Positions 1-48,249 of a stretch of 48,249 bases of DNA are shown piece after piece. The notes under the pieces were generated by a model. That model made no database searches. It was not told the DNA's origin and worked only from the letters and a program-made list of their open reading frames with translations. Numbering within the stretch: the stretch's first letter is position 1; every line of letters starts with the position of its first letter. The stretch is from UHGV virus genome UHGV-0268419. One strand, given 5' to 3'. The translations under genes were made by a program, and so were the position numbers. This DNA is from a virus.

Positions 1-365
1 CGGATGCGGACGGCGTCGATCTCGGTGTTGGTGATGTTACGCACCCATGCAGAAGACTTTTTCAGCTCCACATTGATTCGTGTTTCACTTTCCACCGCCG
101 GGAAGCCGTTGATCGGCTCCTGCTGCGGGGTGCCGTTGCGATATTCCAGTGTAACGCCCGGAATGTTTACCGACCCATCATCGTTCTGAACGGGCGTCCC
201 GTCCATGTAAACGCGCTTGGGCAGGTCTTCCGCGCTAATCGGCACGGTTTCACCCTCTGACAACGCCAGGAGCATCCTTACCGTTGCGTTGCTGATCAGG
301 GAGTCTGGATCTTCAACGGGGGTATGCACGTTGCTACTCCCGCCCTTGTATCCTTTGATTTCCAT
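1..365 (-). CDS. N-terminal 121 codons of the host-specificity / central tail fibre protein (lambda J-like). Start ATG is at 365..363. The gene continues in frame across the window junction into 48249..38811.
   Basis: Reverse-strand translation from 365 gives MEIKGYKGGSSNVHTPVEDPDSL...TEIDAVRIR, which resembles the lambda J N-terminus. The frame is continuous with ORF 38811..48248 if position 48249 is joined to position 1. The ATG overlaps the stop of gene I (TAATG). Confidence 0.8.
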   Translation of the reverse strand, partial: MEIKGYKGGSSNVHTPVEDPDSLISNATVRMLLALSEGETVPISAEDLPKRVYMDGTPVQNDDGSVNIPGVTLEYRNGTPQQEPINGFPAVESETRINVELKKSSAWVRNITNTEIDAVRI

Positions 366-964
366 TAAGAACGTACCTCGTTAGCGATAATTCCGGCGCT
401 GATGATAGCACCCCCGATCTCACGCTCGCCATACAAAACGCCAACGATGTTTCCTTGTGCTGTCGTGTTAACCGGCTGGCCGAAGGCGTATGACGGCGCG
501 TTGGCGTCATTCTCCCGGATCTTCATGCCTGTCGCCTGCGGGGAAAGCATCTGCATAACCCCGCCAGCAGCCGTGGAGATACCAGCAGCAACGAGGTAAG
601 GGGAGACAGCCTGCCCGCCGGGGATGAACGATGCCACGACGCCCGCGACAATCATCGCAGCGCCCAGGATGGTCTGGAACAGGCCGCCCTTCTTGTTGCC
701 GATGATGATCGGGGCAATGCGGAATTCTTCGCCGTCAGGGATTGGCTGCGACATCTCATTGAAGCCGATGTTCCGCTTTCCGATGAAAGGGGCGAAGGTC
801 AGGCCGCGCGACTGGCTGTCTCGCATGTACTGGTCGAATCCGGGGAGGATGGCGGAAAGGGCGCTGATTGCTTCGGCGCAGGAGTCGACCGCAAGGTGAT
901 GGACGCGCCCGAAGCGCGCCCCCATTTCGCCGTATAGTCGGATGGTGCTTAGCTGGTTTCCCAT
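365..964 (-). CDS. tail tip assembly protein I-like
   Basis: 199 aa. It lies downstream of the K-like gene, has a hydrophobic Gly/Ala-rich C-terminal half, and sits immediately upstream of the J start. An RBS GGAG precedes the ATG at 964. Confidence 0.7.
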   Translation of the reverse strand: MGNQLSTIRLYGEMGARFGRVHHLAVDSCAEAISALSAILPGFDQYMRDSQSRGLTFAPFIGKRNIGFNEMSQPIPDGEEFRIAPIIIGNKKGGLFQTILGAAMIVAGVVASFIPGGQAVSPYLVAAGISTAAGGVMQMLSPQATGMKIRENDANAPSYAFGQPVNTTAQGNIVGVLYGEREIGGAIISAGIIANEVRS

Positions 965-1698
965 GGTGTGATCTCCGGTAGTAACTCATGTCGGAGAATA
1001 CCAGTAATGCGCGGCTCAAGGTAGGTGCCATACATCCTATCAATGGTCGATTTGCGGTTCATTAGGTGGTGCATAATCATCCCGTCGCCGGTGTAGATCC
1101 CGCAGTGATTGCTTACGCTGGACGCGATACGGAACACCACCATGTCGCCCGGCTCTGCCTCGGACTTCTTGATAAATCCCGCTGCTGAAAAGTTCTCATC
1201 CGTGAAAAGCTCCTCACCCTTCTCCCACCACGGGTACGGCTTGCGGAAGTCAGGGAGCTGGATGCCTCGCGAACGGTGCCACGCCATCACCAGGCCATAG
1301 CAGTCGGTAGCGCCCAGCACAAAGTCACGACCCAGCAGCCCCTTCGGCTCCTCAAAGAACACCGCCAGCTCATCCTTGTCCGGGGCGTAGATGAACCACG
1401 GTAAGCAAGTTTCCTGCATGAGCTGGCGATCGAGAATTGACGGGTAGGCCAGGCCGTCAGCGCCAGGGTGTGAATGGATGACGGCAACGATATTGCCTGC
1501 GTCCTCAGCCTCAGCGAAGTCCTGCGGAGCAATGCGGAAGCTGTTCATTTTGTCGGCTGCGGAGTTGATGACAGGCCAGTATTCGAGGCCTCCACCTGAA
1601 TCAACCAGAAGCCCGCAGCCTTCTTGCGGCGAACACTCTGTAAGGTGTTGTTTAATATAGTTTAATTGCTGTTCCGGGATGTCATTTACGTCAATCAT
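949..1698 (-). CDS. tail tip protein K-like (MPN/JAB metalloprotease plus NlpC/P60 domains)
   Basis: HSHP JAMM-type motif plus a C-terminal Cys/His NlpC-P60-like region (DCYGLV...H). The ATG at 1698 is preceded by GGAGG; the ORF-track start at 1710 is a GTG. Confidence 0.8.
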   Translation of the reverse strand: MIDVNDIPEQQLNYIKQHLTECSPQEGCGLLVDSGGGLEYWPVINSAADKMNSFRIAPQDFAEAEDAGNIVAVIHSHPGADGLAYPSILDRQLMQETCLPWFIYAPDKDELAVFFEEPKGLLGRDFVLGATDCYGLVMAWHRSRGIQLPDFRKPYPWWEKGEELFTDENFSAAGFIKKSEAEPGDMVVFRIASSVSNHCGIYTGDGMIMHHLMNRKSTIDRMYGTYLEPRITGILRHELLPEITPWETS

Positions 1699-1714
1699 TT
1701 TTGCCTCCACTTGG

Positions 1715-1774
1715 CACCACCTGAAATTTTAAATCATTGATTTATAATGCTGAATTTCAGGTGTTAGGTGGTAT
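1715..1774. promoter_or_regulatory. inverted pair of CCACCTGAAATT elements, including the 22-mer ATACCACCTAACACCTGAAATT on the minus strand, 40 nt upstream of K; candidate promoter/operator of the K-I-J-fibre unit
   Basis: CACCACCTGAAATTTT (1715-1730, +) and AATTTCAGGTGTTAGGTGGTAT (1753-1774, the reverse complement of the 22-mer) flank ttgatttataat. The 22-mer is 21/22 identical to 18867-18888. Confidence 0.45.
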
Positions 1775-1825
1775 TGGTATATATATTTATTACCATAAAT
1801 ACATATAAGACATACCCAAGACCAT

Positions 1826-1850
1826 ATAAATAAAACTCCCTTGGGAGGGT
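1826..1850 (-). terminator. GC hairpin (CTCCC-N-GGGAG) followed by a T-run on the minus strand; likely end of the terS-to-L late transcript.
   Basis: aaaaCTCCCttGGGAGggtttttatt sits in a 288-bp AT-rich gap between L and K. Confidence 0.5.
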
Positions 1851-1998
1851 TTTTATTATATATGGCTATGGGATGTATTCTTATCTTCGTCAGTCGAAAA
1901 CTGAGGGCCTGAACGGCACGCTGTCGCGTTTAACGCCGTCAGGCCATACGTTCGGACGTCTTACGCAAGAAAACGCCGCAGAACGCGATACAGTGCGT

Positions 1999-3258
1999 TT
2001 AATCAATCAGGCGCACAGAGATAAAACCGCCGTAGTCAAGAACGGCCGCTTTCGGGTCACTCACCAGCTGGCCGAAGCGTAGGCGGCAATCCTGAATGCA
2101 CCCCCCACATTCGTCCTTCGTGATGTCGTCCACCTGGTTCCCGTGCTTGTCGTACCACTTTTTAGCTGTGCCACGGTTCCAGCTGCACCCGTTTTCTTCC
2201 CCGGCGTCCAGGCCTTTGCCGTACAGCCCGCGCGCCTGCCACTGACAGAACGTCGTGATCTGCCGCGTTGGCACCTGAAAGTTCTGTAGGTCGAGCGGAG
2301 ACGACAGCGCGAACCGCACATACTCTTCGCTCTCATAGTCTGGCCGATCGATGTAGTAAAGCTGCGTCCACTGCTGCATTGAGTTGGCGAACTCGTTACC
2401 ATCTGTGAAGTTGCGCGGATCGAGGAACTTCGCGTAGGTCTGGATGATCTTGACCTTTGCCCCGACCATCTGCTGATAGGCGCGCAGGTAGGCGCTGACG
2501 ACCCCAGACTGGTTGCCAATGGACAGGGTAGGCGTCCCCTGCTGCTCGCTGCTGAACTCGATCCCCTCAGCCATAAACGGCCAATAGCCATATTCGACGT
2601 TGTCGAACCAGATTGATTTCGGGGCCAGCTTGGACGCGTCAACCTCGTGCGGGTTCTTATTCAGGATGCTGATTCGCTTGATCTCGATCTCGCCTACTTC
2701 CTGCTGCCACAGGTCAATGCGGATGCCGATAATCTGGCTGTTTACCCAGTCTGAACCGCCAGCGCTCAGCTTCGACATGTCGAACGAGAATTTCAGCCAC
2801 CCATCACCGAGATCTTCGGTTACGCTCGACAATGCCCCGCCCTTGTTGTAGCTGGGGGAAAAATCATGCGCTGCTGTCTTGTAATAGATCGTATACAGGT
2901 TATCCGACCCGGCAGGAGGAGTGATCCAGCGCCCCACCACCTCGATCACCTGATATTTGCTACCAGTCAGGCCACCGGTGAACGAAGGCAGCAGAAGGTT
3001 CGCGTCAGCTGCTGACGATTTGAAGTTGATGGTGTTACGGTCTTCGTTCTTTGTCACCGTCCCGCGTCCGCCATAGCACTTGAATAGCTGATCGCGGGTC
3101 AACGTGCTGTTCGCACTGTCGAGGATCTCCTTGCTCGTGTGCGGGAGCTGGCAATAGTGGCCCCGGATGATCCCCGCGCCGAACTCGGTTCCGTCGATCT
3201 CCATGAGAATGATCTTGCCAGACGGGTCGAGCTTTGTGGCTTCGTCGAAAATGGTGTT
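1999..3258 (-). CDS. minor tail protein L-like with an inserted ~190-aa central domain
   Basis: The N-terminus (IILMEIDGTEFG) and the C-terminal Cys cluster (CQWQ...C..C...C, DDITKDECGGCIQDCRLRF...GGF) resemble lambda gpL. The ATG at 3258 has an upstream GAAAGG. The ORF-track N-terminal extension overlapping M was trimmed. Confidence 0.75.
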   Translation of the reverse strand, partial: NTIFDEATKLDPSGKIILMEIDGTEFGAGIIRGHYCQLPHTSKEILDSANSTLTRDQLFKCYGGRGTVTKNEDRNTINFKSSAADANLLLPSFTGGLTGSKYQVIEVVGRWITPPAGSDNLYTIYYKTAAHDFSPSYNKGGALSSVTEDLGDGWLKFSFDMSKLSAGGSDWVNSQIIGIRIDLWQQEVGEIEIKRISILNKNPHEVDASKLAPKSIWFDNVEYGYWPFMAEGIEFSSEQQGTPTLSIGNQSGVVSAYLRAYQQMVGAKVKIIQTYAKFLDPRNFTDGNEFANSMQQWTQLYYIDRPDYESEEYVRFALSSPLDLQNFQVPTRQITTFCQWQARGLYGKGLDAGEENGCSWNRGTAKKWYDKHGNQVDDITKDECGGCIQDCRLRFGQLVSDPKAAVLDYGGFISVRLID

Positions 3259-3260
3259 GC

Positions 3261-3623
3261 TCATCCTTTCACCCCTGTGTAGATGCCCACGGCCTGCTCG
3301 GCTGTGAAGGTAATGTTCATGGTTGCACGTCCCAGCGCGACATATTTGATCGTGCCTGATTTCACGGTGTAAATGCCCAGTTCGCCATGCGGCGGAACCA
3401 TCTGGAACGGGTTGGTGATGTGCGCTTTCAGGAAGGATAGGATCTGGTTGCCGGTCTTGGCGTTGCCAGTCCACGAGCAGGGCACCTCCATAATGAACGG
3501 ATTGATGCCTTCTAAAACGTTCTGCTGTGAGCCGTCGCCGAAGCTGTTCGATCGGCTGCGGTCTTTCACTGATACCTGTTGACCTGCCGCCAGCGGCCAG
3601 ATCCACGCGTCTAATGTAGCCAT
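3261..3623 (-). CDS. minor tail protein M-like
   Basis: 120 aa beginning MATLDAW, with a strong RBS AGGAGG. It lies between tape measure and L as in lambda. The upstream part of the 184-aa ORF overlapping tape measure was rejected. Confidence 0.65.
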   Translation of the reverse strand: MATLDAWIWPLAAGQQVSVKDRSRSNSFGDGSQQNVLEGINPFIMEVPCSWTGNAKTGNQILSFLKAHITNPFQMVPPHGELGIYTVKSGTIKYVALGRATMNITFTAEQAVGIYTGVKG

Positions 3624-3657
3624 AAAAAAAGCCTCCTGTGTGGGAGGCTGTAGGTTA

Positions 3658-6504
3658 TCACGCGTGACCGTTAATAAGCATCCAGATCTGTCCACCCGGG
3701 GAGCTTGCCCGGGCGATGCCGTCCTGAATGGCTGCGGCCATTGCATCACCGTAGGCTCGGCCCAGCTTGCCAGACTCTGACACGTTGGCCGTCGCCTGCC
3801 CGTTCTGGTCGACATTCACTTCCATCGACCCGATGGAGACGCCGCCACCGGCACCGCCCTGAGCACGAACACCAAGACGCCCGCTGGAATCCTTCGCCAG
3901 TGGCATGATGGCTTCCGGCCCGGCTTCGGCGAACACCCCGCCCTTCGCAAACGGCTTCGGCTTGTCATACGTGAACAGCTGCGGCGTGGTGTAGACGCGG
4001 TTGCTGTAAGCAGACAGCGACGGGCTATCGTATACGCCACCCTTCGCATTGAATCCGATGCTGGACATATCGAAGCCCATCGCGCCGCCGATCCCCTGGA
4101 TGGCTTTGAACATGAGCCATTTGTTGATCATCTGAACCATCATCCCGAGGATGGATTTGGTAAAGTCGGCGAACGACGCCTTACCGGTCATCACGAAGGA
4201 GTTGATCGAGTCCAGCCCGGCATCCATTGCGCCAGTGATGGCCTTCTGTACGTTGGCTGAGGTGTTGGTGGCATCCTTACCCCACGCTTCGATCGCGGAG
4301 CGTGCGCCGCCTGCCCAGTCCTGCGTTTTCGCGTCGGTAGCCTGCCGCAGCGCTTCACGCTGGCGTGCGTCCTCGTCGATTTGCTCCTGAGTCGCGCCTT
4401 TGTCCCGGAGGGCCGCCGCTCGCTGCATGTTCTCCAGCAGCCGCGCAGCCTCATCGGCTGATAGACCCCATGAGGCGTTAATGGCCGCCACCTGAACAGA
4501 CATGTCATTGCCGCTGCGGGTCAGCTCATCGGTGATCTGCGCCTGCCGCTCCAGCTGCTTGACCTGATCGCCCAGCAGGCCGACGGTCTTGGCCTTCGCG
4601 AGAATCTCCTCTTTGCTCGCCAGAAGTGACTGTTCGTCCTTGGTGAGTGCCCGGCCTTTGGCGTCAGCACGGATGCCCTCAAGGATGGAGATCTTCGCGA
4701 CCAACAGCTGATAGTTCTTCATCTGCTCTGAGGCGTTGACGTCGAAGGCGTTACGGTCTTTCAGCGTCTTGATCTGCGCCCGTAATGCCAGCTCCTGCGC
4801 CTGATACTGCTCAAGGATGCGATCACCCTGCGCAACGGTGACGGCCTTCTCCTTGTTGTGCTTCGTTGACTCATTCGCCAGCTTGCTGACCGCTTCCCTG
4901 CTCTTCTCATCGGTAGCACCGCTGCCGGTAGCACCGTTGGCGTTGCGCGCCCGCGCCTCAGCGTCTGCCTGGCTTTCAAAGGCCCGCTTGCTGACCTCCG
5001 CGAACTCCTTCGCGATCTGCTTGCCCTTCTCGATGGACTCACGGCCATTTTTCTCGACGGTTTCGACGTCGATCCCCATCGCCCGGAGAACGCCACGGCC
5101 ATCAACGCCCGGCACCTTGTCCAGCAGGTCAGCAACGCCCAGCGTAAATTTGCTGTCCATCTGCGCAAGATAGTTCAGCAGGTCGTCGATCGATAGCTTG
5201 ACCATCTTGAAAATATCGACGGCGCGGTTCCCCCACGAGCGCAGCACGATCCCCATATCGTTAAAGACATCCGACGCGGCGGTTTTCAGCGTCTTCCATG
5301 CCTGACCGACGTTATCAGTCTTCTCGATCACGTCATCGGCCCGCTTATTCATGGCCGTTGTGTAGATGTCCAGCGCTTCGGCAGCAGCAGCCTGCTCACC
5401 CTTCTCCTTCTGCGTCTGGATTAGGTGCTTCATCTGCGCTTCGGTCATGAAACCATACTGCTCATTGAGCGCGGCGATAGACTTGATCGGGTTCTTCACC
5501 AGGTTATCGAAGTCTTTCATGACGTCGCCAGCGTCCAGCCCGGCATCTGACAGCTTCGACGTTGAGATCGCCACCTTCTCCATCATGTCGGCTGTCATCG
5601 TGCCCTTGTTGTTCAGCTCGATCAGCCGGTCGGTGATGCTGCTAATGCTGTCGCCAGTTGACTGCTGGATCATGACGGCGGCCCTGTTCAGCTCTTCGGC
5701 TGACTTAAAGCCTGCACCACCCATGAGCGTCACCGATGCCGCGAGTCGATCGGCCTGGTCTGCGCTGGTGTAGGCTGCATAACCCATTGCAGCGATGGCC
5801 GCTGTCGCGCCAGCCAGCCCGAGGAAGGAAGGGGAAATGAATTGTTTAAGCGCCTGAAAGGTGTTGCCCAGCCCGCCGAAGGAGTCCTTAATCTGGCCGC
5901 CCTGCTGGATCATGATCAGGAATGGATTCTGACCACCAGCCAGCTGGGTGACGATATCGGTCATCTGCGCCGGTAACATACCCATAGCAGCGCGGTATTG
6001 CCCGGTAGTGATGGTTAATCCCTGCTGTAGCGTCTTCTGCTTCTCAGACGTCACATTCAGGCCGCGCATAGCTGCGTCGTTGCGGTCGATGATCCCGGCG
6101 CGGTTGGCGAGGATCGCGTTGTACTCCTCCGCTTCCTTCGCGCCCAGCAGCCCGTTAGCCTGCGCCTTCGCCAGTGCCTCCTGCTGCTGCGCCAGGTCAC
6201 GAAGCTGAACGCGCGTTGGCCTGATGCGGTCGAGGAGGTTTTGAAGCTCCTGATTCTGCCGGTACAGCCCCACGGCAGCGTCGCCAGCAGCCTCCTGCGT
6301 CTGCTTCGCCTCGTTGTTGAAGTTGTCGACCGCTGCGGCTGCTGAGTCGGCTGACGGCTTCACCTGGTCGAACTTGTCGCCCAGCCCGTCCGCTGCCCTG
6401 CCTGCGTCCTGCGCCGCGTCAACAAGGTCTGCGAGGGATTTGGCCCCCGCGTTGACCCCGCTGGCGTCGACGTCGACGATCAAGCGTTCTGTGTTTTCAC
6501 TCAT
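3658..6504 (-). CDS. tail tape measure protein
   Basis: 948 aa, Ala/Gln/Glu-rich and coiled-coil-like, with C-terminal Gly-rich segments. It follows the G/GT chaperone pair; ATG with GGAG RBS. Confidence 0.9.
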   Translation of the reverse strand: MSENTERLIVDVDASGVNAGAKSLADLVDAAQDAGRAADGLGDKFDQVKPSADSAAAAVDNFNNEAKQTQEAAGDAAVGLYRQNQELQNLLDRIRPTRVQLRDLAQQQEALAKAQANGLLGAKEAEEYNAILANRAGIIDRNDAAMRGLNVTSEKQKTLQQGLTITTGQYRAAMGMLPAQMTDIVTQLAGGQNPFLIMIQQGGQIKDSFGGLGNTFQALKQFISPSFLGLAGATAAIAAMGYAAYTSADQADRLAASVTLMGGAGFKSAEELNRAAVMIQQSTGDSISSITDRLIELNNKGTMTADMMEKVAISTSKLSDAGLDAGDVMKDFDNLVKNPIKSIAALNEQYGFMTEAQMKHLIQTQKEKGEQAAAAEALDIYTTAMNKRADDVIEKTDNVGQAWKTLKTAASDVFNDMGIVLRSWGNRAVDIFKMVKLSIDDLLNYLAQMDSKFTLGVADLLDKVPGVDGRGVLRAMGIDVETVEKNGRESIEKGKQIAKEFAEVSKRAFESQADAEARARNANGATGSGATDEKSREAVSKLANESTKHNKEKAVTVAQGDRILEQYQAQELALRAQIKTLKDRNAFDVNASEQMKNYQLLVAKISILEGIRADAKGRALTKDEQSLLASKEEILAKAKTVGLLGDQVKQLERQAQITDELTRSGNDMSVQVAAINASWGLSADEAARLLENMQRAAALRDKGATQEQIDEDARQREALRQATDAKTQDWAGGARSAIEAWGKDATNTSANVQKAITGAMDAGLDSINSFVMTGKASFADFTKSILGMMVQMINKWLMFKAIQGIGGAMGFDMSSIGFNAKGGVYDSPSLSAYSNRVYTTPQLFTYDKPKPFAKGGVFAEAGPEAIMPLAKDSSGRLGVRAQGGAGGGVSIGSMEVNVDQNGQATANVSESGKLGRAYGDAMAAAIQDGIARASSPGGQIWMLINGHA

Positions 6505-6836
6505 GCTGTATCACTCCTGCTCATGAGAACTCTGATCGCGGCCCCCTCCATGATTGCCAGGTCATCCATGAGCAGGCGATCGAACTTGACGCCATACAGG
6601 TCAGCCATGACGGGGATCACGTTGTAGTCGAGGCCGATTAAACCGCCCGGCCCCGTGCGCCATTGGGTATCAATACGCTGGTAAAAATAAAAGCTATCAA
6701 CAATCTCTGCTGATAGCTCCACTTCTGGACGGTAGTCTTCCAGCTCCCCCCCGAAATTATCGACCAGCTGCTGCGGCGGATCGGGGAAATACAGACCCTC
6801 AATCGCGGCGGTTAGTGCTTTTGGCGCAGCTTCCAC
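6501..6836 (-). CDS. tail assembly chaperone T segment, expressed as a G-T fusion by -1 programmed frameshift
   Basis: The -1 frame ORF overlaps the last ~22 codons of G. The T-frame stop TGA overlaps the tape measure ATG (ATGA). Confidence 0.7.
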   Translation of the reverse strand: MEAAPKALTAAIEGLYFPDPPQQLVDNFGGELEDYRPEVELSAEIVDSFYFYQRIDTQWRTGPGGLIGLDYNVIPVMADLYGVKFDRLLMDDLAIMEGAAIRVLMSRSDTA

Positions 6837-7201
6837 AGCTCGGACTGGTAGCCAACGCTGATCGACATAAACGCCGTCGGGTAGTTATCGAACAGGGTGA
6901 TCAGGTTCTCTTTCGTGAACTCGTCAGACAGCTCCCAGCCGGTTGCGATGTCCAGCACAAAATCTGCCATCAAAGGATATTGCAGCACGCTATCTTCGAC
7001 CACTGACAGCTTTTTGCCCTTGTATTCCTCATCCATCTCCTGCACGCGCTTCGCCATCGCTTCCTGCTTCTCTTTCAGCTCGGTCAGCGGCATGCGCTTG
7101 AACGTGAATTTCAGCTCTGTAGGCTCATCCTGCCCTACGGTGGTGATCAGGATCGGAAGTTCGAACGTGCCAGCGGGTACTAACTTGAATTTTGCAGCCA
7201 T
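6812..7201 (-). CDS. tail assembly chaperone G-like
   Basis: 129-aa acidic protein between the major tail and tape measure genes. It ends ...LWKLRQKH with a CCAAAAG motif before the stop. Confidence 0.8.
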   Translation of the reverse strand: MAAKFKLVPAGTFELPILITTVGQDEPTELKFTFKRMPLTELKEKQEAMAKRVQEMDEEYKGKKLSVVEDSVLQYPLMADFVLDIATGWELSDEFTKENLITLFDNYPTAFMSISVGYQSELWKLRQKH

Positions 7202-7220
7202 TGTCTTGTCTCCAGATATG

Positions 7221-7245
7221 AAAAAGGCGGCCTAAGCCGCCCTGA
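7221..7245 (-). terminator. intrinsic terminator / attenuator after the major tail protein gene
   Basis: Minus-strand GGCGGC-ttag-GCCGCC followed by TTTTT, between 7258 and 7201. Confidence 0.6.
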
Positions 7246-7257
7246 TGATAGCACGCT

Positions 7258-7929: not shown

Positions 7930-7930
7930 G

Positions 7931-8383
7931 TTAGCCTCTTGCGTTATTGATACGGTAGTTCATCGTGACAGCCACATGCAGCCCGGCGTCGTCTTCATAG
8001 TCAGCGCCGATTTCAGCCGGTGCCGTAAGGTATAGCTGCTGATCGTCGTCGCCGATGCTAACATAATTACCGTCATAGAACATCGCTTCATTGAACGCCT
8101 CCACCAGCGCATCGGCTGCATCGTAGATCTGCCGGGTGCCGGACAGGCGCGGAGCACGCAGCATCACCTGATAGATCCCGCGCTTCGCGATGTCTGACTG
8201 CTGGAAGCCCATGGAGATAGACGGGGCCGGGATGTGCTGCGGGAAGCCGACCAGCTGACTCACCGCCTGCTCGTTCATGTCGTTATCGGCGCTGTTACGC
8301 CACACGAGGGCGATATTGTTGTTGTTGCCCCACTGCATTGCGATTAGGTCGAATTTCGCCTGAATCTGTGAAGTGCTGATCAT
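7931..8383 (-). CDS. tail terminator / tail completion protein (gpU-like position)
   Basis: 150 aa directly upstream of the major tail gene. Confidence 0.5.
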   Translation of the reverse strand: MISTSQIQAKFDLIAMQWGNNNNIALVWRNSADNDMNEQAVSQLVGFPQHIPAPSISMGFQQSDIAKRGIYQVMLRAPRLSGTRQIYDAADALVEAFNEAMFYDGNYVSIGDDDQQLYLTAPAEIGADYEDDAGLHVAVTMNYRINNARG

Positions 8384-36684: not shown

Positions 36685-36696
36685 GGAGCGCTATAA

Positions 36697-37191: not shown

Positions 37192-37199
37192 GGTAGAAA

Positions 37200-37495: not shown

Positions 37496-37496
37496 G

Positions 37497-38810: not shown

Positions 38811-41800
38811 TTATTGTCCAAAAGAACCGTTGTTGCTTCGGAATGCAGTCACAACAATATTGCTTACTGTGACCTCACTCTGCTGCGGCCCAAAACTTGC
38901 GCCAGTCAGCGAGATGCCGATTCGGTCGTTACTTGCTGGAATGTTAACGGTGAACGACTGCGGAACATCCACAAGGCCACGCGCTTTATCCCGCATATCA
39001 ACAACGACGCGTCTCGTACTCTGCACTCCGTTAATGTTGAATGTCAGAACCACATAGAAGTCACGGCTTTGGTCGCCTACCCCGCCAGAGTATGAATTGC
39101 ATCGCACAGTGCAGTTCAGCGTGATGGTCATCGGATACCCACGGTTCTGATACCATGCGTTCATAGTGCCAGAACCTTCACCGCCCTTGACAGTAAATCC
39201 GTTGAACGAAGCAGAAGTAGCAATATCGCCGATAAAAGACTCAGCTTGCACCGTTCCCTTGAAAATACCGCTGTTAGCCTCGACACGACCACGAACGATA
39301 ACGTTATTGAACTGCGAGCTGCCATCTTTACCGATGCGCCAGCCCTGAGAGCCATCGACAAAGTTGTTCGACTTGATTTCGTTTCCGATCTTCGCGTTGG
39401 TGATCGAGCCATCGCGGATCAGCGCTTCCTGCATGTACGCCACGCCGTTCTGCACAACGAACGGGAACGTCTTGTTACTGCCGCCAGCGTACACCGCGAA
39501 GGTGTCAGCCTGAACCAGGAACTGAGAAGAGCCACTCGCGTCGATGCCCAGCTGAATACCAGCAATGCGCGGGTTTCCGCCGCCGTTGTCAGTCTGAACT
39601 TTGACGCCCCACTGCGCCGACAGCTTGCCGTTGATATCCGCAACAGCCGTTGAAGTCTGCTGAACGGTGGAACTCATACCATCCACTGACGCCTTGATTG
39701 TGCCGATCTGCTGCGCCGTTGAAGACTCAAGATCCACCATTGCCTGGCTCGTCTGCGTGATGGCCGCCTGGTTGTCGCCGATCTGCGCACGCAGTTGCTG
39801 GAAGCCGTTCGCCATCGCCAGACCGTTAGCCGCTGTCGTCTCATTCAGGGCATTGACCGACGCTTCGGCTGTCCCCACCCGGCTCGTCAGCCCGGTAATG
39901 GCGGTCGTGTTCGCCGTAATGTCCTTGCCCTGCTGCGTCACCGTGGAGTTCAGCGAGGTGATGGCGGCCGCGTTCGCCTGGATCCCAGCGCCCCGACGGG
40001 TCACTACCGGGTTATACAGGCTGACGCGGGTCGTGGCGGCGTGGCTCCCCGCCTGGATGTAGGCGGTCGTACAGCCTGCCGGAACCGTGATGCCCGTCAG
40101 GGTGAAGCGATATTTCTCCCCGGCGGTCATGGTGCGGTTGGTGGCATACGCGGTCTGGTTGCTGACACTCGGGCCGTCGAAACGTAGCCCGACTGTTATC
40201 TCGCCTGCGATGTTGACCATTACCGACACCGCCAGATCCAGCGTCTCACCCGCCGTGACCGGGAATTTCCCCGACGTCGGGTTATAGCTCACCGTGGAGT
40301 ACACCGCCGGATAGCCGTCGATGGTCTCCGTCCCGGTCTTCGCCCAGCCCTGGCCATCGCCCAGCATTCCAGGGTTAGGCACCAGGTTGTCGCCGTAGGT
40401 GATGCTGTTCTGTAGACTGGTGATGCTCTGACCTTGCGAAGTGATGCTTCCCTCGGCAGACGTCACTCGGTTGGTTAGGGCGGTCAGCGCGGTCGCATTC
40501 GCCTTTTTGGCCACTTCCGCATTCGTGGCCGCCAGGTCGCCCTTCGTCGTGGACAGGTCGCTATTCAGCTTGGTAATCGCCTGACCCTGAGAGGTCAGTG
40601 TATTGCCCTGCTGGGTGACAGTCGATTGCAGGCTGGTGATCGCGTTGGAGTTCGCGATAGTACCGGCATTTCTGCGGGTAACTTTAATGTTATAGATCGT
40701 GAGGGTAATGGCGTTTCTGCTATAAGGTTGGAGATAGCCAGTTGTCGCGCCATCCGGGACAGTGATGGTTCCAGTTACGGATTTCTTCTCGCCAGCTGCA
40801 TAGTTTAACGGCTCCACGTAGACCGAGTTGTTCGTCATGCTCGGGCCATCGAAGCGAATACCCCATGCCATGCCGTTGATTGCGGCACCAGCCAGACAAA
40901 GAAGACTAAAGTCTAGAATGTCGCCAGGTGTTACGGAAAACTTAGGTGAAGTTGGAGACCATGCTGCCGTGTCGATCACAGCCGGATAACCGTCAACAGT
41001 TGTTGCATGACCACCCCAACCCTGAGCGTCATTCAGCATTGCGGAGTTCGGAACAATGTTGTCGCCCACCGTTAAAGTATTTTCTAACGACGTTACGCGA
41101 CTGCCCTGGCTCGCGATTTGGCCTTCTGTGGTGGTAACGCGCGTTTGCAGCGCGGTGACTGCGCTGGCGTCAGCCTTCTGACTCAGCGTGCCATTGATGG
41201 TGCTCACGTCACCGTTCAGCTTGGTGATCGCGTCTGCCTGAGATGTGATCTGCCCTTCTGCGGCGCTCACACGGCTGGTCAGGCTATTGATCGCGCTTGA
41301 GTTAGCGTCTGCTGTGGTCTGTGCTGCGTGCGCGTCGGTTACGTCGGTGATCACCAGATCGTCGATATAGATGCGATATCCAGGGCCTCCGGACGTGCCG
41401 CGAGTGGAGATCCACAGGCGACCTCGTGTTTTCTTTGCGCCGTCTAAGCCGAGCTTACCGGAGAACTTGACCCACTGACCGCGGCCGCCACCAGCAGCAA
41501 GCCCTGCCTCTGTAATGACGAATGCGCTAGGCCATGCGTTCTGGTTGGCTGTGTTGCGAACCATTAAGCCCACAACACAGTTCCACCCGTTCGGCGGCGT
41601 CTCATCTTCCGGCATCATCGCCCAGCATTCGAAGCGGTAAACCGCAGACTCGCGAATAGCTGTTTCATTGCCGAAAGTCTTGTCAGAGTTGCCGGATTCA
41701 CCGTTGGCGCGGCGACACATAAGCGACTTCTGACCACTGAATGAGAAGTCAGTAGTGACCAGTCCATTAGATCCGCCGATGGCTTGCTGGTTGTCATACG

Positions 41801-44800
41801 ACTCGAATGATCCATCTACCCACGGGTTGCTGTTGCTGTACTGAACAGTTTTAAGCGAGTTGTTCAGCTGGGTGATCGCGCTGCCCTGCGACGTGATGTC
41901 GTTACCCTGCTGGGTTACTTTCGTGTTCAGCGAGGTGATCGCGTCAGCGTTCGCCTGAATCTTGGTGTCGTTGGTGATGTCGACAACGTAGACGTCGTCG
42001 AAATACATCGCCCCAGCACTCAGTGCGGTAGTCAGCTGAAACAGCGCGTTGGTGGTCTTCGTAGCCGTCCAGTCCATGAAGACGTGTTGCCATTCAGACG
42101 TAAACGGGCCGTAATTCGTGCCAGCAAGAAGATTTCCTGATGCGTCAGCGATACGGAATTTCGTGTTGTTCGTATCGTTGATGACAGTACCGGCGTCCTG
42201 TTTGGTAAACACGCCGAAGCGGTAGCGGCGGCCCTGCGTGATCTCCACGGCCTGACTGATTCCAGCTCTTCCGCCTGCCGCCATCTTGACAATTTTGGTG
42301 CCAGAATGCGGCTGTGTTGCCGTGATGATGGTGGCAAGGCTGCTCCAGCCGGTGAAGTTAACCGGGCCGCGCTCAAACGATGAGTTAGCCAGCAGGTTTC
42401 CGGGGATCTTGCCCTGCGCGTCGATTGAGGCGTCAGTTGCAGACAGGCTATTGCTCAGCTGGGTGATCGACTGGCCCTGTGAATCGATCTTGCCTTCGGC
42501 AGTCGATACGCGGGTGGTAAGCGCGTTCAGCGCCGAAGCGTCAGCCTTATTGTTCACGATGCCGGTCAGCGTGCTCAGATCGCTGGTCAGTTTGGTGATG
42601 GCCTGACCCTGAGACGTGATCGACCCTTCCGCTGATGTGACACGGGTGGTCAGCTGGCTGATCGCTGTGGCGTTGGCGTCTGCCTTGCCCTCAGCAGTCG
42701 CCGCTGCGGTGACGTCGCGCACCTGCCAGTCGGTCGCATACCATACTGTCCCGAAGTTAGGGCCGTCCTGATTGATTTGCAGGAATGGACGGAAGTAACC
42801 CTTCGCACCCTGCGCCGCGTTTACTTTCCAGCGCCACGTGGTTCGCGTCCACTGCGCGCCGGTAGCCGCTGAGATTTGGCCTCCGTTCGCCAGTGGCGAC
42901 CCGATGCTGCCAGAAACCAGTGTCGACGTCCCGATGTAGTGCTGGAACGGTGCAGTGCCGGTGCCACACGCAGCCAGTACAGACAGCTCAAACACCTGAC
43001 CTTCGCGGCAAGGGATGTTATTCATTGCCGGGACGTGATCGCGGTACTGGCATTTAATCGCCCACGGGTAAGGGCATCCAGCCGGAACGCCTTCTGACGT
43101 TGTGGAGACAACGTTCATGCCCATTTGCGGATAGGCCGGGTCTACCGTCGGGTTCGGGATGAGGTTCGCCGCCTGAGTCAGTACGCCCTTGATCGATGAG
43201 TTGATCGAGGTGATGGACTCAGCCTGTGAGTCAATCTTCCCTTCGGCTGCACTGACCCTGGTCGTCAGGTTGTTGATCGCCGTTGAGTTAGCGGAGATCT
43301 TCCCGTTCGCTGTCGACAGGTCGCTGGTGAGCTGGGTAATTGCATTGCCATGAGCCGTGATCTTCCCTTCGGCGGTGGTGACGCGGGTGGTCAGCGACTG
43401 CAATGCGCTCGCGTCAGCTTTGTTGTTCAGCGCGGTGTTGATGTCCCGCACCGAGTTGTTCAGAGTGACGATAGCGGCACTGTTCGCGTCAACCTTCCCG
43501 GAGGTCTGCTCAACCTGAGAGGAGAGCACCTGGGAGGCTGATGCAGCGGCCAGCTGACCGGCACCACTGAACAGTTGATCGACGTTGTCGGACAGCTTGA
43601 GGCCAAAGTTGATATAGAACTGACCGGTGTACTGCGCAACAACGAATTCAAGCGTGTTCCAGCCTTTTTTGAGATCCATGCTGTAGGTGCTGGTGCTGGC
43701 AGAGAAGGAAGCCGCTTCCGTTCCATTGATGTACAGCCGTCCGGTGTCGTCAATGATGCGGGAACCGGGCGAGATAGCAATGGTCTTATCAGCCGCAACA
43801 TACACCAGCGCCTTCACATACGCGATTTTGTAGTCGCCGTAAGGCAGAAAATCCAGCTTTGCAGCGTCAGCCATCTCGTACACGGCCAGCGGCGGCACGC
43901 CTGCGAGATCTGTTAACTTCGGCACGTAGCCGGTATTAACCTTAATATCGAAGATCTTTGTCAGCCAGTACTTCGCTTTACCGTTCTGCGCGGTGTTCTG
44001 CAAATCGGTGATGGCCTGACCCTGCGAAGAGATGGCGTTCCCCTGCTGGGTGACAGTGGTCGCCAGCTGCTGCAATGCGCTCGCTTCGGCCTTGGTCGCC
44101 ATCTGACCCTGCAAAGTGCTCACGTCGCCTTTGAGCTGGGTGATCGCCTGGCTGTTGGTGCTGATGGTGCCTTCCGCCGCAGTAACGCGGGTGGTCAGGG
44201 CGTTAAGCGCCGTAGCGCTCGCGTTGGCGGTGTTGATGCTGCCCTGGACTTCGTCCGGGTTCGGCCCCCAGTCGGTTCCCCGGTTGCCCTCTTCCAGCTG
44301 GATTTTGTACAGCACGCAGCCGGTCGTCCGCTCCTTATCCTCACAGATAATGCGCAGCGTGTTCGGATTTTTGAACAGTACCGCCCCGGCCGCCACTGTA
44401 ACCGTCCCGCGATAGCGGAAATACTGGCCATCCTCCACGATGCTTCCGTCGCTCATGTAGAAGCGCTTGCTCCAGCTGTCACCGGTCGCGCTCGCGGCCC
44501 CAAGCACGGCGCTGGTGAACGGATCTTTCATGGTGTAATCGTTGGACTTCTTAAACCAGACTGACAGCGTGAAATAGGTGGTCGCACTGATGCTTTTCGC
44601 CTTCCACGTGTCCGGCACCTGGAAGTCATACGAGGTGAACGACGTCGCCGAAGACCGCATGGTGAGCGGGTTCAGTGTGCGGTCTGACCCCAGCAGGATG
44701 TTCTCTGCCCCGATCTTAATTTCCGTGACTGTGTTCTTTAGCGAGGTAATCGCCTGGCCCTGAGAGGTCAGCGTATTGCCCTGCTGGGTGACAGTCGATT

Positions 44801-47800
44801 GCAGGCTGGTGATCGCGTTGGAGTTCGCCGTGATCTTCCCGTTCGCGTCGGTCAGGCCGCTTTGAAGCTGGGTAAGTGCCTGCGCCTGAGACTGGTTCTC
44901 GCTGGTCAGCGTGTCGAGACGCTTGGTCACGGAGGCCTTGTTCGCGTTGTAGTCAGTGCGCAGGGTGTTGACGTCGCTGGCGATCGCCTGCTCTGCGGTG
45001 ACGCGGGTCTGGCGCTCGTTGAAGATGATGCCTGTCACCAGCTTGGACGGGTCGGTTCCCTCATAGTTCCCGCGAAGCTGTACGGCCAGCGTGTTACGCG
45101 CTGCGGCTTCGGCAGAGTCCGCAGAGGTCATGGCGGTGCGAAGATCCTGAATCTGCGCCTGTGAAGCGCCTGGGGTCGGTCGTCCTACTGCCAGCCAGTC
45201 GACGGCGTAGTAGTTATTGGCGTCCTGATTGTTTGAGAAGTCAAAGCGCAGGCGGCGCACGGTGCCGGATGTCGCCCACAGAAGATCTGGGATCGACAGG
45301 ACAGTGATCCCGGTGGCCGGGTCAAAGTCAGGTGCCGGAATGGCAATTGAGCGGCCACTTGTCCAGCCAGTCTCATCCACACCAATCCAATACAGCTTAC
45401 CAGCCCATGACGGGTTCCCGACTCGCTTCATGCGCAGGCGCATGTACTTATAGCTGCGCGCGTCGATTGCCAGCGGGTTAGGTGAGCGCATGGTGGATGC
45501 TGCGCCAGCAGGGTAAATCCAGCCATCTTGGTCGACGGTGAGCAGATTGGTGTTGGCGTCGTCAGAAGCCCACCCTTCCGGGCCGTTGTCGAAATACCAG
45601 ATAGCGAGGCTGTCGAACTGCTCGCCAGTACCAGCGGAAATGGATGCCATCTGCTGCGCCAGGCTGTCGAAGCCGTCCTGCATCGTGGTATTGGTGGTGC
45701 TGATCTGCGCTTCGACTTCGTTTTTTGTCGCCAGCAGGTTAGCCGCAGCCTGAGCTGCCACTTCTGCGTCATCCGTCTCAGCCTTCGCGATAGCGTCGGC
45801 CACGTCCTGAGCTGCCTTGTTGGCGTTCGCGATGTCGCCAGCCTTGCGGTCAAGGATCTCCTGAGCGATTGCACTGGCGTTTGCCGCCCCCGCGTTAGCG
45901 GTGGTGGTGATGGCCTGCGCGTTCTTCTGGATCTCGGCCAGCTGGTTGTTCAGCTGCTGCTGCTGCTGCTGGTTGGTTGTCACTGCTCCGTCAGCAGTAA
46001 CCTGCGCGGCCTGCGCGGCGTCTTTCGCTGCCTGTGCGCTGTCGCTTACGTCTTTGATGCCGCTGGTAAGTTCGCCGTAGGTGTCGGAGCCTTTGATCGC
46101 GTCGTCGATGTTCTGGTAATAGTCGTCCATGTTGTCGGACGTCATCGCCATGACCGGGGCGCTCCACTCGCCAGCATCGCTATATGACGACACAAAGCGG
46201 GCGCGCACCTGCACGCGTTCGGAAAATTTCAGGCCGGACTGTGTGAACGTCCCGGTCGGGTAGGTCACGACGCTGAGATCGATCCACCCACCAACCGGAG
46301 CACCATTGCCGTCAATGCGCTGGAACTGTAGCTCTGTCGACTTCATGTCGATCAGATCATCCGTGCCAGTCACCCAACGCCAGGTAATACCGTTAACGAT
46401 GCCTACGCCGTTCAGGCCAGCTACTGCCGGGATGCTGCCGCGCTTGCCGTCAACGAACACCTGATTCGACTCGACCCACTGAGACGACCCGCCGTCACGG
46501 GATACGGAACGAACGCGGAACTGATAGGTGCCGGTCAGAACGTTGGTCAGGTCTACGGACGTGCTCGACTGGCTGGCAAGGTTAGTCCACCCCTGTGACC
46601 ACTGGCCGTTTGACTGAGAGGTTCGGCGCACCTGAATGTCGTAGCTGACGGCCTGACCTACGGTGAACCATGAACAGTTTACGTTAGCTGAGCGAATCCC
46701 CTGGTTAACGATACTGTAGCCTTCGGCCACCACGTTAGCGGGTGCCTGTACCTGACCGGTCGGGATCAGCGATGTCGGGCGGTCTTCAATTCGCGCGCCG
46801 GTGTCAACCTGCAAATACTTCGAGTGGCTGTATTGCAGACCGGTAACGGTGAAATTATTGTCCTGCTCGTTGTAGGTGATCTTGGTGATGCGGATTAGTT
46901 CCGGTGCCAGTACCTTAGTATCCAGCAGGAACACTTCACCGCTCTGAATATCAAGGTTAGCGCCGTCGACGGTGAAGGACATCCGGTCAGCCGCGATTGC
47001 ATTGATCACGCGGTTGTAGGTTCCATCCGATCCAGCTTGACGAACGATCACTCTGTCGCCGATTGCCACGTGGTCGGAGATCATACGGTCGGAGGTAATG
47101 GTGGTGCCGGATGCGCCAGCAACACGCCCGCCGAACTGACCGCCCTGCACGTAGCGGTTAGCGATGCCGACGACGTCGCCGATCAGGTACTTGATGCCGC
47201 TCAGGCCGACGCGGTAGCTGATCTGCATGTCGTTGGTATTCGACAGCAGCGCCCACAGGCCGCGACGTTGCGCTTCGTATTCGTCCGTGCAGCCGATGCC
47301 GGACACTTCCAGCGGCTCAACGCCATAGCGCTCCACGAGGTCTTTGATCTGCGCCACAGTGGTCTGCGTCTTATAGTGCGCCTTCGGGTCGTCAAAAGTG
47401 ACCATCGCGATCCCGCGACGGTTAGCCATGCTGCCGTAGGAATATTCGAACGTCCCGTTCACGACGTCGTCGTTTGTCACAACATGGCGGACTTCTGCCG
47501 GTGCATCCTGCGCGAACTGCAATTGCATATTGCTGTAGCTGACCATTCCGTTAAAGATCGACGCCAGGTCACGGATGACGATCCACGCATGCTCGCGTTT
47601 CTGGATATACACGTTACAGGTGTAACGGCGGTTCTGCGTGCCGTCGGCGTTCGTCACCAGCTCATCGCAGCGCTGTGCGATGCTGTACATCGTCCATTTG
47701 TTCAGGAATGAGGACGGGATACGGCGGCCAATACCGAAGCGCTTGTGCAGAATGATGTCGTAGACGATCCACGCCGGGTTATCCGTCCACGCCTGTTTAA

Positions 47801-48249
47801 ATGTCCCGTTCCACGACCCGCTGTAGGTGTGGTTAACAGGGTCATAGTTGGACGGAACCAGCACCAGACGGCCGCCCATCTTGATGCTGATTGTCGGGAT
47901 GTTCTGGAACGATTTGGCGTCGAAGCTGACGAACAGTAGGGACGTCCACGGGTAACGAACGCGGGCGTCGACGATCTCGGTGACAGCCACGATCCCGGAG
48001 TTGAGCACGGTGGTATCAGACTTGCTGTCGTCAGTTAGGCGGGTAACGCGGATTTGCCAGCCAGCGCTGCTCTTCGGCAGGTCGATGCGGTGATCGCGTT
48101 CATAGTTGTCTTTCTGCTTGCCGTCGACAGCACCATTGAAGGCCACGGTGTAGACGCTGTCGCCGACTTTGCGGTATTCAATCCGGTACTCAATGCGTCC
48201 GCCTACGCGATCCCCGTCCTTCTGCTGGATGACCAGCCGGAAATTCATT
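38811..48249 (-). CDS. central tail fibre / host specificity protein J-like, C-terminal 3146 codons. The full gene is ~3267 aa and wraps to 1..365. It contains ≥7 coiled-coil/globular repeat modules.
   Basis: The core resembles lambda J (LVPSNYDP..YSGSWNGTFKQAW...NPAW). The C-terminal ~200 aa resemble the lambda J receptor-binding region. The intervening ~2000 aa consist of repeated ITSLQSTVTQQGNTLTSQGQAITSL-type helical segments alternating with beta-rich domains. Confidence 0.85.
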   Translation of the reverse strand, partial: MNFRLVIQQKDGDRVGGRIEYRIEYRKVGDSVYTVAFNGAVDGKQKDNYERDHRIDLPKSSAGWQIRVTRLTDDSKSDTTVLNSGIVAVTEIVDARVRYPWTSLLFVSFDAKSFQNIPTISIKMGGRLVLVPSNYDPVNHTYSGSWNGTFKQAWTDNPAWIVYDIILHKRFGIGRRIPSSFLNKWTMYSIAQRCDELVTNADGTQNRRYTCNVYIQKREHAWIVIRDLASIFNGMVSYSNMQLQFAQDAPAEVRHVVTNDDVVNGTFEYSYGSMANRRGIAMVTFDDPKAHYKTQTTVAQIKDLVERYGVEPLEVSGIGCTDEYEAQRRGLWALLSNTNDMQISYRVGLSGIKYLIGDVVGIANRYVQGGQFGGRVAGASGTTITSDRMISDHVAIGDRVIVRQAGSDGTYNRVINAIAADRMSFTVDGANLDIQSGEVFLLDTKVLAPELIRITKITYNEQDNNFTVTGLQYSHSKYLQVDTGARIEDRPTSLIPTGQVQAPANVVAEGYSIVNQGIRSANVNCSWFTVGQAVSYDIQVRRTSQSNGQWSQGWTNLASQSSTSVDLTNVLTGTYQFRVRSVSRDGGSSQWVESNQVFVDGKRGSIPAVAGLNGVGIVNGITWRWVTGTDDLIDMKSTELQFQRIDGNGAPVGGWIDLSVVTYPTGTFTQSGLKFSERVQVRARFVSSYSDAGEWSAPVMAMTSDNMDDYYQNIDDAIKGSDTYGELTSGIKDVSDSAQAAKDAAQAAQVTADGAVTTNQQQQQQLNNQLAEIQKNAQAITTTANAGAANASAIAQEILDRKAGDIANANKAAQDVADAIAKAETDDAEVAAQAAANLLATKNEVEAQISTTNTTMQDGFDSLAQQMASISAGTGEQFDSLAIWYFDNGPEGWASDDANTNLLTVDQDGWIYPAGAASTMRSPNPLAIDARSYKYMRLRMKRVGNPSWAGKLYWIGVDETGWTSGRSIAIPAPDFDPATGITVLSIPDLLWATSGTVRRLRFDFSNNQDANNYYAVDWLAVGRPTPGASQAQIQDLRTAMTSADSAEAAARNTLAVQLRGNYEGTDPSKLVTGIIFNERQTRVTAEQAIASDVNTLRTDYNANKASVTKRLDTLTSENQSQAQALTQLQSGLTDANGKITANSNAITSLQSTVTQQGNTLTSQGQAITSLKNTVTEIKIGAENILLGSDRTLNPLTMRSSATSFTSYDFQVPDTWKAKSISATTYFTLSVWFKKSNDYTMKDPFTSAVLGAASATGDSWSKRFYMSDGSIVEDGQYFRYRGTVTVAAGAVLFKNPNTLRIICEDKERTTGCVLYKIQLEEGNRGTDWGPNPDEVQGSINTANASATALNALTTRVTAAEGTISTNSQAITQLKGDVSTLQGQMATKAEASALQQLATTVTQQGNAISSQGQAITDLQNTAQNGKAKYWLTKIFDIKVNTGYVPKLTDLAGVPPLAVYEMADAAKLDFLPYGDYKIAYVKALVYVAADKTIAISPGSRIIDDTGRLYINGTEAASFSASTSTYSMDLKKGWNTLEFVVAQYTGQFYINFGLKLSDNVDQLFSGAGQLAAASASQVLSSQVEQTSGKVDANSAAIVTLNNSVRDINTALNNKADASALQSLTTRVTTAEGKITAHGNAITQLTSDLSTANGKISANSTAINNLTTRVSAAEGKIDSQAESITSINSSIKGVLTQAANLIPNPTVDPAYPQMGMNVVSTTSEGVPAGCPYPWAIKCQYRDHVPAMNNIPCREGQVFELSVLAACGTGTAPFQHYIGTSTLVSGSIGSPLANGGQISAATGAQWTRTTWRWKVNAAQGAKGYFRPFLQINQDGPNFGTVWYATDWQVRDVTAAATAEGKADANATAISQLTTRVTSAEGSITSQGQAITKLTSDLSTLTGIVNNKADASALNALTTRVSTAEGKIDSQGQSITQLSNSLSATDASIDAQGKIPGNLLANSSFERGPVNFTGWSSLATIITATQPHSGTKIVKMAAGGRAGISQAVEITQGRRYRFGVFTKQDAGTVINDTNNTKFRIADASGNLLAGTNYGPFTSEWQHVFMDWTATKTTNALFQLTTALSAGAMYFDDVYVVDITNDTKIQANADAITSLNTKVTQQGNDITSQGSAITQLNNSLKTVQYSNSNPWVDGSFESYDNQQAIGGSNGLVTTDFSFSGQKSLMCRRANGESGNSDKTFGNETAIRESAVYRFECWAMMPEDETPPNGWNCVVGLMVRNTANQNAWPSAFVITEAGLAAGGGRGQWVKFSGKLGLDGAKKTRGRLWISTRGTSGGPGYRIYIDDLVITDVTDAHAAQTTADANSSAINSLTSRVSAAEGQITSQADAITKLNGDVSTINGTLSQKADASAVTALQTRVTTTEGQIASQGSRVTSLENTLTVGDNIVPNSAMLNDAQGWGGHATTVDGYPAVIDTAAWSPTSPKFSVTPGDILDFSLLCLAGAAINGMAWGIRFDGPSMTNNSVYVEPLNYAAGEKKSVTGTITVPDGATTGYLQPYSRNAITLTIYNIKVTRRNAGTIANSNAITSLQSTVTQQGNTLTSQGQAITKLNSDLSTTKGDLAATNAEVAKKANATALTALTNRVTSAEGSITSQGQSITSLQNSITYGDNLVPNPGMLGDGQGWAKTGTETIDGYPAVYSTVSYNPTSGKFPVTAGETLDLAVSVMVNIAGEITVGLRFDGPSVSNQTAYATNRTMTAGEKYRFTLTGITVPAGCTTAYIQAGSHAATTRVSLYNPVVTRRGAGIQANAAAITSLNSTVTQQGKDITANTTAITGLTSRVGTAEASVNALNETTAANGLAMANGFQQLRAQIGDNQAAITQTSQAMVDLESSTAQQIGTIKASVDGMSSTVQQTSTAVADINGKLSAQWGVKVQTDNGGGNPRIAGIQLGIDASGSSQFLVQADTFAVYAGGSNKTFPFVVQNGVAYMQEALIRDGSITNAKIGNEIKSNNFVDGSQGWRIGKDGSSQFNNVIVRGRVEANSGIFKGTVQAESFIGDIATSASFNGFTVKGGEGSGTMNAWYQNRGYPMTITLNCTVRCNSYSGGVGDQSRDFYVVLTFNINGVQSTRRVVVDMRDKARGLVDVPQSFTVNIPASNDRIGISLTGASFGPQQSEVTVSNIVVTAFRSNNGSFGQ
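40572..40655 (-). repeat. intragenic DNA repeat copy 1 (82/84 nt identical to 44745-44828)
   Basis: ggtaatcgcctgaccctgagaggtcagtgtattgccctgctgggtgacagtcgattgcaggctggtgatcgcgttggagttcgc. Confidence 0.8.
44745..44828 (-). repeat. intragenic DNA repeat copy 2
   Basis: Near-identical to 40572-40655; encodes the same coiled-coil peptide. Confidence 0.8.

Follow-up and report, generated by a model that had tools for sequence, protein, structure and literature searches.

A giant J-type tail gene spans the record ends of UHGV-0268419, a probable complete genome of a lytic Klebsiella siphophage

The virus record UHGV-0268419 (48,249 bp, 57% G+C, no Ns; hereafter the window) is very probably a genome that is complete and closes into a circle, from a strain of the species phiKp_24 / vB_Kp3, which belongs to the unclassified lytic siphophages of Klebsiella. 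The two ends of the window fall inside one giant gene for a lambda J-type tail-tip protein, and reading frame, homology and DNA all run without interruption from position 48249 to position 1. The gene set is complete, no lysogeny genes were found, and no host flanks are present, since the window closes on itself. Together, the complete gene set, the missing host flank and the self-closure indicate a complete genome written as a rotation of a circle. The genome would have been assembled into a closed circle and then written out from an arbitrary point 366 nt into the J gene. Joining the ends restores a protein with a lambda-J-like hub (~850 amino acids), a modular fibre insertion of ~2,050 amino acids and a J-type C-terminal tip. 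The junction is therefore an artefact of record layout in a complete genome of an already-described phage species, and nothing mechanistically new follows from the junction itself.

The gene across the record ends

The minus-strand translation of the joined ends (the last 900 nt and the first 900 nt) reads ...TNTEIDAVRIR up to the junction and MNFRLVIQQKDGDR... beyond it, with no stop codon or frameshift, as the original prediction had claimed. The record ends split an arginine codon, leaving CG at window positions 2..1 and A at 48249. The joined gene (365..1 + 48249..38811, minus strand) is 9,804 nt long, which is divisible by three, and encodes 3,267 amino acids ahead of a single terminal stop. 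Its 5' part (1..365, minus strand) holds codons 1-121 and two bases of codon 122, and was recognised from its frame, its start context and N-terminal homology to lambda J and gp24 that begins at residue 2-9. The 3' part (38811..48249, minus strand) continues from the last base of codon 122 to the stop at 38811..38813; it was recognised from the frame and from relatives in which the whole is a single gene.

The genuine start of J is the ATG at 365..363 (context GAGGTACGTTCTTAATG). This codon overlaps the TAA stop of gene I (365..964) by 1 nt in the arrangement TAATG, has a Shine-Dalgarno-like GAGG upstream, and lies five codons downstream of an in-frame stop. The lambda-J-like N-terminus proposed for 365..1, with its ATG on the stop of gene I, is thus confirmed. 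The related claim that the open reading frame (ORF) at 38811..48248 has no start inside the window is incorrect to the letter, as the mechanical ORF list opens this frame with an in-frame ATG at 48248. It holds in substance, because that codon is an internal methionine within a conserved domain, lacks a Shine-Dalgarno motif, and is not a genuine start; there is none at the far end of the window.

Homology also crosses the junction in single pieces, in agreement with the original prediction. The Pfam domain FNIII-A_GpJ (PF24801, 119.8 bits) covers J residues 91-217 and straddles the boundary between residues 122 and 123. In phmmer searches of the PDB, residues 2-844 align in one stretch to 23gd_D, annotated as 'J-like tail tip protein gp24' (E 4e-219), and residues 9-708 align in one stretch to lambda J (8iyk_J, E 1e-87). 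The F2-pyocin fibre 25vf_A and 9l9p_S likewise give single-stretch alignments through the junction. The protein further carries a C-terminal Phage_Tail_Tip domain (PF09327) at residues 2983-3116 (127 bits), and residues 2908-3119 align to 23gd_D 907-1120. Both its N-terminal hub and its position directly after M, L, K and I are those of a J-type protein, although at 3,267 amino acids it lies outside the typical size of ~1,100-1,200.

Related genomes contain the joined sequence as ordinary internal DNA. A 3,000-nt junction probe (1,500 nt from each end of the window) matches phiKp_24 (98.2%) and Haden_MM8 (98.6%) in one ungapped high-scoring segment pair (HSP) each, and the more distant HSE3 in one HSP with 14 gap positions at 84.7%. 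In the phiKp_24 record, window position 1 maps to 26238 and window position 48249 to 26239, so that no base is lost or doubled. The exact junction-spanning 38-mer occurs inside the IMG/VR contig UViG_3300045988_087187, and J residues 1-409 are encoded in three IMG/VR contigs with matches of 1,227 nt (409 codons). The full J protein aligns end to end with BEH89093 of phiKp_24 (3,294 amino acids) at 90.9% identity. In relatives, the corresponding gene is one frame of 9,885 nt directly after gene I (25874..35758 in phiKp_24; 18437..28321 in Haden_MM8). The records of phiKp_24, KT367887, P85_2 and phiKp_7-1 read through the break point, as do three IMG/VR contigs.

The break point itself has no distinguishing features among those that we sought: repeats above 15 nt, strong hairpins and lexicographically minimal k-mers are all absent from this position, and the window has no terminal direct repeat. 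We considered whether assembly breaks cluster near this site and rejected the idea. The 'end' of the IMG/VR locus L007, 94 nt away, is a storage boundary rather than a contig end, and the contig behind it carries the break region internally at 26669-33895. The only record broken nearby is ON602766, 79 nt from the break of the window, which fits chance or a shared pipeline.

That record illustrates the practical consequence of such a layout. A linear gene caller applied to the window would report a J protein of 3,145 amino acids from the internal methionine at 48248 and an orphan 122-codon fragment at 365..1. Exactly this kind of mis-annotation of the main tail-tip protein exists in GenBank: ON602766 is a circular record broken inside J (1-9630 + 48070-48513), its 'tail protein' coding sequence (CDS; 25..9630) is N-terminally truncated, and joining its ends yields an intact J ORF of 3,357 amino acids. 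Rotating the window, for example to start at terS (18814), mends the J annotation. A separate irregularity occurs in the phiKp_24 record (LC768495), whose ends overlap by 95 bp (1-95 and 48325-48419), such that both align with window 26149-26243. The probable cause is an overlap left untrimmed after circular assembly, in which case the true length of phiKp_24 is ~48,324 bp.

Completeness, packaging and lifestyle

In megablast searches the window is 97-98% identical to complete genomes of Klebsiella siphophages, ~47.3-48.8 kb long, including phiKp_24, vB_Kp3, P85_2 and Haden_MM8 among others, and its own length falls within this 47.3-48.8 kb span of close relatives (at least 90% identity). Against phiKp_24, HSPs of 26,248 nt (98.0%), 14,361 nt (98.3%) and 7,085 nt (95.7%) cover ~98.6% of the window. 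The identity of ~97.7% over ~98.6% gives a product of ~96%, which places both in one species when species are defined by nucleotide identity times aligned fraction of at least 95% to a member genome. All 58 annotated CDS of phiKp_24 have intact counterparts in the same order, and an endolysin and two short ORFs transferred from the ON602766 annotation are also intact. Most window proteins are 97-100% identical to their counterparts in relatives. The 60 genes occupy 95.7% of the sequence, with gaps of 100 bp or more only at 1711-1998, 18815-19265 and 31861-32004, and no tRNA genes were found in the window. The complete phiKp_24 gene complement and the lack of host flanks uphold the original view of a whole genome with J across its ends rather than a slice of a prophage.

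Headful packaging of this genome is predicted from its close relatives and its protein families. Read-based PhageTermVirome analysis classified phiKp_24, phiKp_7-1 and phiKp_14 as 'Headful' and 'Permuted: Yes', with no direct terminal repeat (DTR) (PMC10581060 Table S2). The terminase subunits of the window are of headful-associated types: the small subunit, TerS, matches GP3_package and the large subunit, TerL, matches Terminase_6N/6C. The original prediction had assigned TerS to Terminase_2, an assignment that we did not reproduce; its match is to GP3_package (PF16677, E 8e-12). The nearest TerL proteins outside the group belong to Jerseyvirus, including Kenya-K14 and K62, at ~50% identity over 95% of the length. 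The Jerseyvirus phages of one study are reported to use pac-initiated headful packaging, on the basis of PhageTerm, restriction digests and pulsed-field gel electrophoresis (PMC10783031). A distant relative, MED16, has no defined termini, and its TerS was matched to P22 gp3 by HHpred (PMC8306585). A P22/Jersey-type terminase would make its first cut in a concatemer near a pac site and measure out the later cuts by the filling of the head. The resulting virion DNA would be terminally redundant and circularly permuted, would lack fixed ends, and would assemble as a circle. If the ends are permuted in this way without fixed termini, then nothing biological can be read into where the record breaks.

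Gene content and relatives likewise point to obligately lytic growth, a prediction that draws on computational calls and on absences. None of the 60 proteins matches an integrase, a serine or other site-specific recombinase, an S24 repressor, a protelomerase or ParA/ParB in a Pfam scan at E<=0.01, and the largest gap of 451 bp leaves no unannotated space for a lysogeny gene. The absence of an integrase and of a repressor had been part of the original prediction. A scan of 185,579 bacterial and archaeal genomes, which covers one genome per species and detects close relatives only, found none for the major capsid protein (MCP) or for TerL, and window 1-24000, the structural half, has no megablast match among the 72,556 plasmids of PLSDB. 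The closest relatives phiKp_24, phiKp_7-1 and phiKp_14 were called 'virulent' (PMC10581060 Table S2), and PMBT64 was predicted to be virulent by PhaTYP (PMC13435897). Close relatives and gene content support the proposal of a virulent, headful-packaging phage. For phage therapy, it matters that no lysogeny genes were found.

The early and recombination genes (32005..37403, plus strand; Pfam and PHROG matches) encode an SF2 helicase, VRR-NUC, a PDDEXK exonuclease, Erf, SSB and an XRE-type helix-turn-helix (HTH) protein of 67 amino acids. Further early genes encode an AAA_25 primase-helicase and two DNA methyltransferases (Pfam Dam; PHROG 757), and there is a holin/spanin/lysozyme cassette. The XRE HTH protein is the only strong regulator-type match in the genome. 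It lacks an S24 peptidase domain, and its match to Phage_CI_repr is below threshold (18.1 bits against a 22-bit cutoff). A protein of 70 amino acids has a sub-threshold match to NinH.

Several points weigh against a complete, headful-packaging, virulent genome and lend themselves to other explanations. One such explanation is that the continuity from end to start is an assembly artefact, through a chimeric join or a collapsed repeat, and that J is not one gene. The J gene does contain internal DNA and protein repeats, and 'tail fiber' genes are fragmented in some relatives' records (HSE3). However, the junction sits in the non-repetitive N-terminal hub, the 3-kb probe is ungapped in independent genomes, the exact 38-mer is present inside an IMG/VR contig, and one Pfam domain as well as single-stretch alignments to solved structures span the join, so that a misassembled junction is essentially excluded. 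It is also improbable that the virion DNA has fixed ends (cos or a short DTR) and is not permuted, with the circular assembly reflecting reads from concatemers or repeats that collapsed. A circle can equally result from assembling a cos or DTR phage, and circular closure, permutation and headful cutting are predicted for this genome rather than seen directly. In addition, packaging of phiKp_7-2 was called 'unknown', though permuted, in the same PhageTermVirome run (PMC10581060 Table S2), and the ON602766 record breaks only 79 nt from the window. Against fixed ends stand the read-based headful, permuted, DTR-free calls for phiKp_24, phiKp_7-1 and phiKp_14, the P22-gp3 type of TerS, and the headful Jerseyvirus as the nearest TerL outgroup. 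Moreover, phiKp_24, KT367887, P85_2, phiKp_7-1 and the three IMG/VR contigs read through the break, which is free of strong hairpins and of repeats above 15 nt, and there would be no precedent for a fixed end within an essential tail gene.

A temperate element, whether an excised prophage or an N15/phiKO2-like phage-plasmid, would require lysogeny functions that are too divergent to recognise, and we regard this as very unlikely. What speaks for it is the Erf/SSB/PDDEXK-exonuclease module and the small XRE HTH protein, both common in temperate phages, the distant relationship of the giant J protein to that of the linear-plasmid prophage phiKO2, and the roughly half of the small early ORFs that have no family assignment. 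The reach of the searches also bears on it, since the genome scans cover one genome per species and close relatives only, and the plasmid search covers window 1-24000 only. On the other side, not one of the 60 proteins matches an integrase, serine recombinase, S24 repressor, protelomerase or ParA/ParB, unannotated gaps reach 451 bp at most, no MCP or TerL relative appears among the 185,579 genomes, and no plasmid matches the structural half. Isolated relatives are lytic phages, and their predicted lifestyle is virulent. A complete genome of a virulent phage that packages by the headful mechanism remains the reading that we favor.

The J insertion and the structural genes

Residues 1 to ~850 and ~2,900 to 3,267 of the J protein correspond to an ordinary J-type protein of ~1,150 amino acids. 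Downstream of the junction, the remainder of the N-terminal hub and FN3 region (residues 123 to ~850; 46065..48249, minus strand) is defined by homology to lambda J and 23gd_D and by the FNIII-A_GpJ and fn3 domains. It is followed by the insertion of ~2,050 amino acids (residues ~851-2900; 39915..46064, minus strand), which is absent from ordinary J proteins and comprises blocks D1-D8. The C-terminal Phage_Tail_Tip domain (PF09327) and a distal domain of ~150 amino acids (residues ~2901-3267; 38811..39914, minus strand) are 90-100% identical among relatives.

The insertion is made up of eight blocks rich in aromatic residues, Gly, Pro and Cys that alternate with fibrous 'AITxL..VTQQGNxITSQGQ' repeats, the latter brought out by fragment-wise BLAST. 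These repeats are weakly similar to the P22 tail needle gp26 (4lin_A). Block D5 (41919..42422, minus strand) matches the carbohydrate-binding module CBM_4_9 (PF02018) with 31.0 bits against a cutoff of 25.9 (E 3.6e-07), and the other seven blocks have no Pfam match above the curated cutoff. Block D7 (residues ~2483-2703; 40508..41167, minus strand) appears as a replaced cassette, with 16-26% amino acid identity to phiKp_24, Haden and ON602766 between flanks that are 84-100% identical. Blocks D2 and D8 are also replaced in ON602766. With its D7 cassette replaced, the J protein is 27 amino acids shorter than that of phiKp_24. Thus, the hub and C-terminal tip are 90-100% identical among near-identical genomes, while individual blocks differ, and this pattern of replacement suggests exchangeable binding cassettes. 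It is possible, though doubtful at present, that the insertion forms a trimeric 'beads-on-a-string' central fibre whose eight globular blocks, at least one of them a glycan-binding CBM_4_9, are swapped as cassettes among near-identical phages and set capsule-type specificity. If this were true, then Klebsiella siphophages would have a route to change host range without need of a tailspike depolymerase of the classical kind. The AlphaFold2 model built from the single sequence of D5-D6 (mean predicted local distance difference test score 47.6) contains strands, a long helix and further strands, a pattern that is only suggestive.

The tail module follows a lambda-like order of tube, chaperone pair, tape measure, M, L, K, I and J, and then an S74 fibre; all genes of this module and of the head and packaging modules are on the minus strand. 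Tail assembly protein I (365..964; Lambda_tail_I) is preceded by minor tail proteins K (949..1710; JAB+NlpC/P60), L (1999..3264; Phage_tail_L, 421 amino acids) and M (3261..3623; Phage_min_tail). Farther upstream are the tape measure protein (3658..6504), identified by a profile match, and the tail chaperone pair, which consists in Pfam terms of a DUF1799 ORF with a GTG start (6501..6836) and Phage_TAC_4 (6812..7201). The tail tube protein (7258..7929) is again identified by a profile match. Directly downstream of J lies a side tail fibre or spike of 420 amino acids with a C-terminal Peptidase_S74 intramolecular chaperone (37521..38783). Profile matches also identify a Gp13-like major capsid protein (9954..11060), a scaffold (11156..11857), a Mu-F-like minor head protein (11890..13008) and a DUF4055 portal (13005..14573). 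TerL (14575..15936; Terminase_6N/6C) is 100% identical to that of phiKp_24, and TerS of the P22 gp3 type (18212..18814; GP3_package) is the point at which many relatives' records start. Searches of TerL and TerS against the PDB with phmmer returned nothing useful.

Several details of these modules deserve mention. Phage_tail_L covers only residues 214-419 of the L protein, and the N-terminal ~210 amino acids form an extra domain with no family. The overlapping tail chaperone ORFs (6501-7201) have a layout that resembles the lambda G/GT-type programmed frameshift. At the end of gene L, where an unusual 288-bp non-coding gap separates L from K (1711-1998), the IMG/VR relative L007 carries a perfect 69-nt x 4.1 tandem array (2020-2303), of which the window has a single copy at ~1926-2002. 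This array may reflect a genuine expansion or an artefact of assembly.

An ORF of 532 amino acids (16536-18134, minus strand) lies between terS and terL; it is rich in coiled coils and matches nothing in Pfam or PHROG. Its occurrence is confined to this group of Klebsiella phages, in which its position does not vary, and it is 35-97% identical between phages whose TerL proteins are 98-100% identical. The window copy is only 89% identical to its phiKp_24 counterpart, and HSE3 and ATCEA85 have only remnants. GenBank mislabels the ORF as 'methyl-accepting chemotaxis protein I' or 'chromosome partition protein'. In PP738799 (Haden_MM8), the homologue at 681-2266 is split into three CDS (681-1676, 1740-1883 and 1838-2266), which suggests frameshift sequencing errors in the deposit.

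Relationship to known phages

The terminase links the window to the Jerseyvirus phages of Salmonella through TerL (~50% identity over 95% of its length), but these phages differ in genus, host and tail genes and have genomes of 41-43 kb rather than 48 kb. The orphan ORF of 532 amino acids between terS and terL is a feature of the window phage that Jerseyvirus does not have.

Within the tail, the N-terminal ~700-950 amino acids of J are homologous to those of lambda gpJ (8iyk), gp24 (23gd_D) and the F2-pyocin fibre (25vf_A), with E values from 1e-87 to 4e-219. Lambda gpJ and the solved J-like proteins also have in common with the window the Phage_Tail_Tip region and the gene order M-L-K-I-J. 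Solved J-type proteins are 1,132-1,204 amino acids long, and the 3,267 amino acids of the window protein exceed this because an insertion of ~2,050 separates the FN3 region from the tip domain. A J protein of such size has a precedent. Gp21 of the Klebsiella oxytoca linear-plasmid prophage phiKO2 ('similar to lambda J protein', 3,433 amino acids) is a giant J-type protein that is also encoded after gene I, and its insertion is distantly homologous to that of the window (35% identity over 78% of the insertion). The two phages differ in lifestyle genes, as the temperate phiKO2 carries a telRL site and ParA/ParB, whereas the window phage has no such genes by Pfam.

The closest known systems are phiKp_24 (LC768495), vB_Kp3 (KT367887, ON602766), P85_2 and Haden_MM8, which are 97-98% identical over ~98-100% of the window. 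This group consists of unclassified siphoviruses in vConTACT cluster VC_124_0 (PMC10581060). Gene order is identical, all genes are held in common, and the giant tail gene likewise follows gene I. The window differs from these phages in its D7 cassette, in the ORF of 532 amino acids (89% identity) and in the point at which the record starts, and it adds one strain to this known species of lytic, headful-packaging Klebsiella phages.

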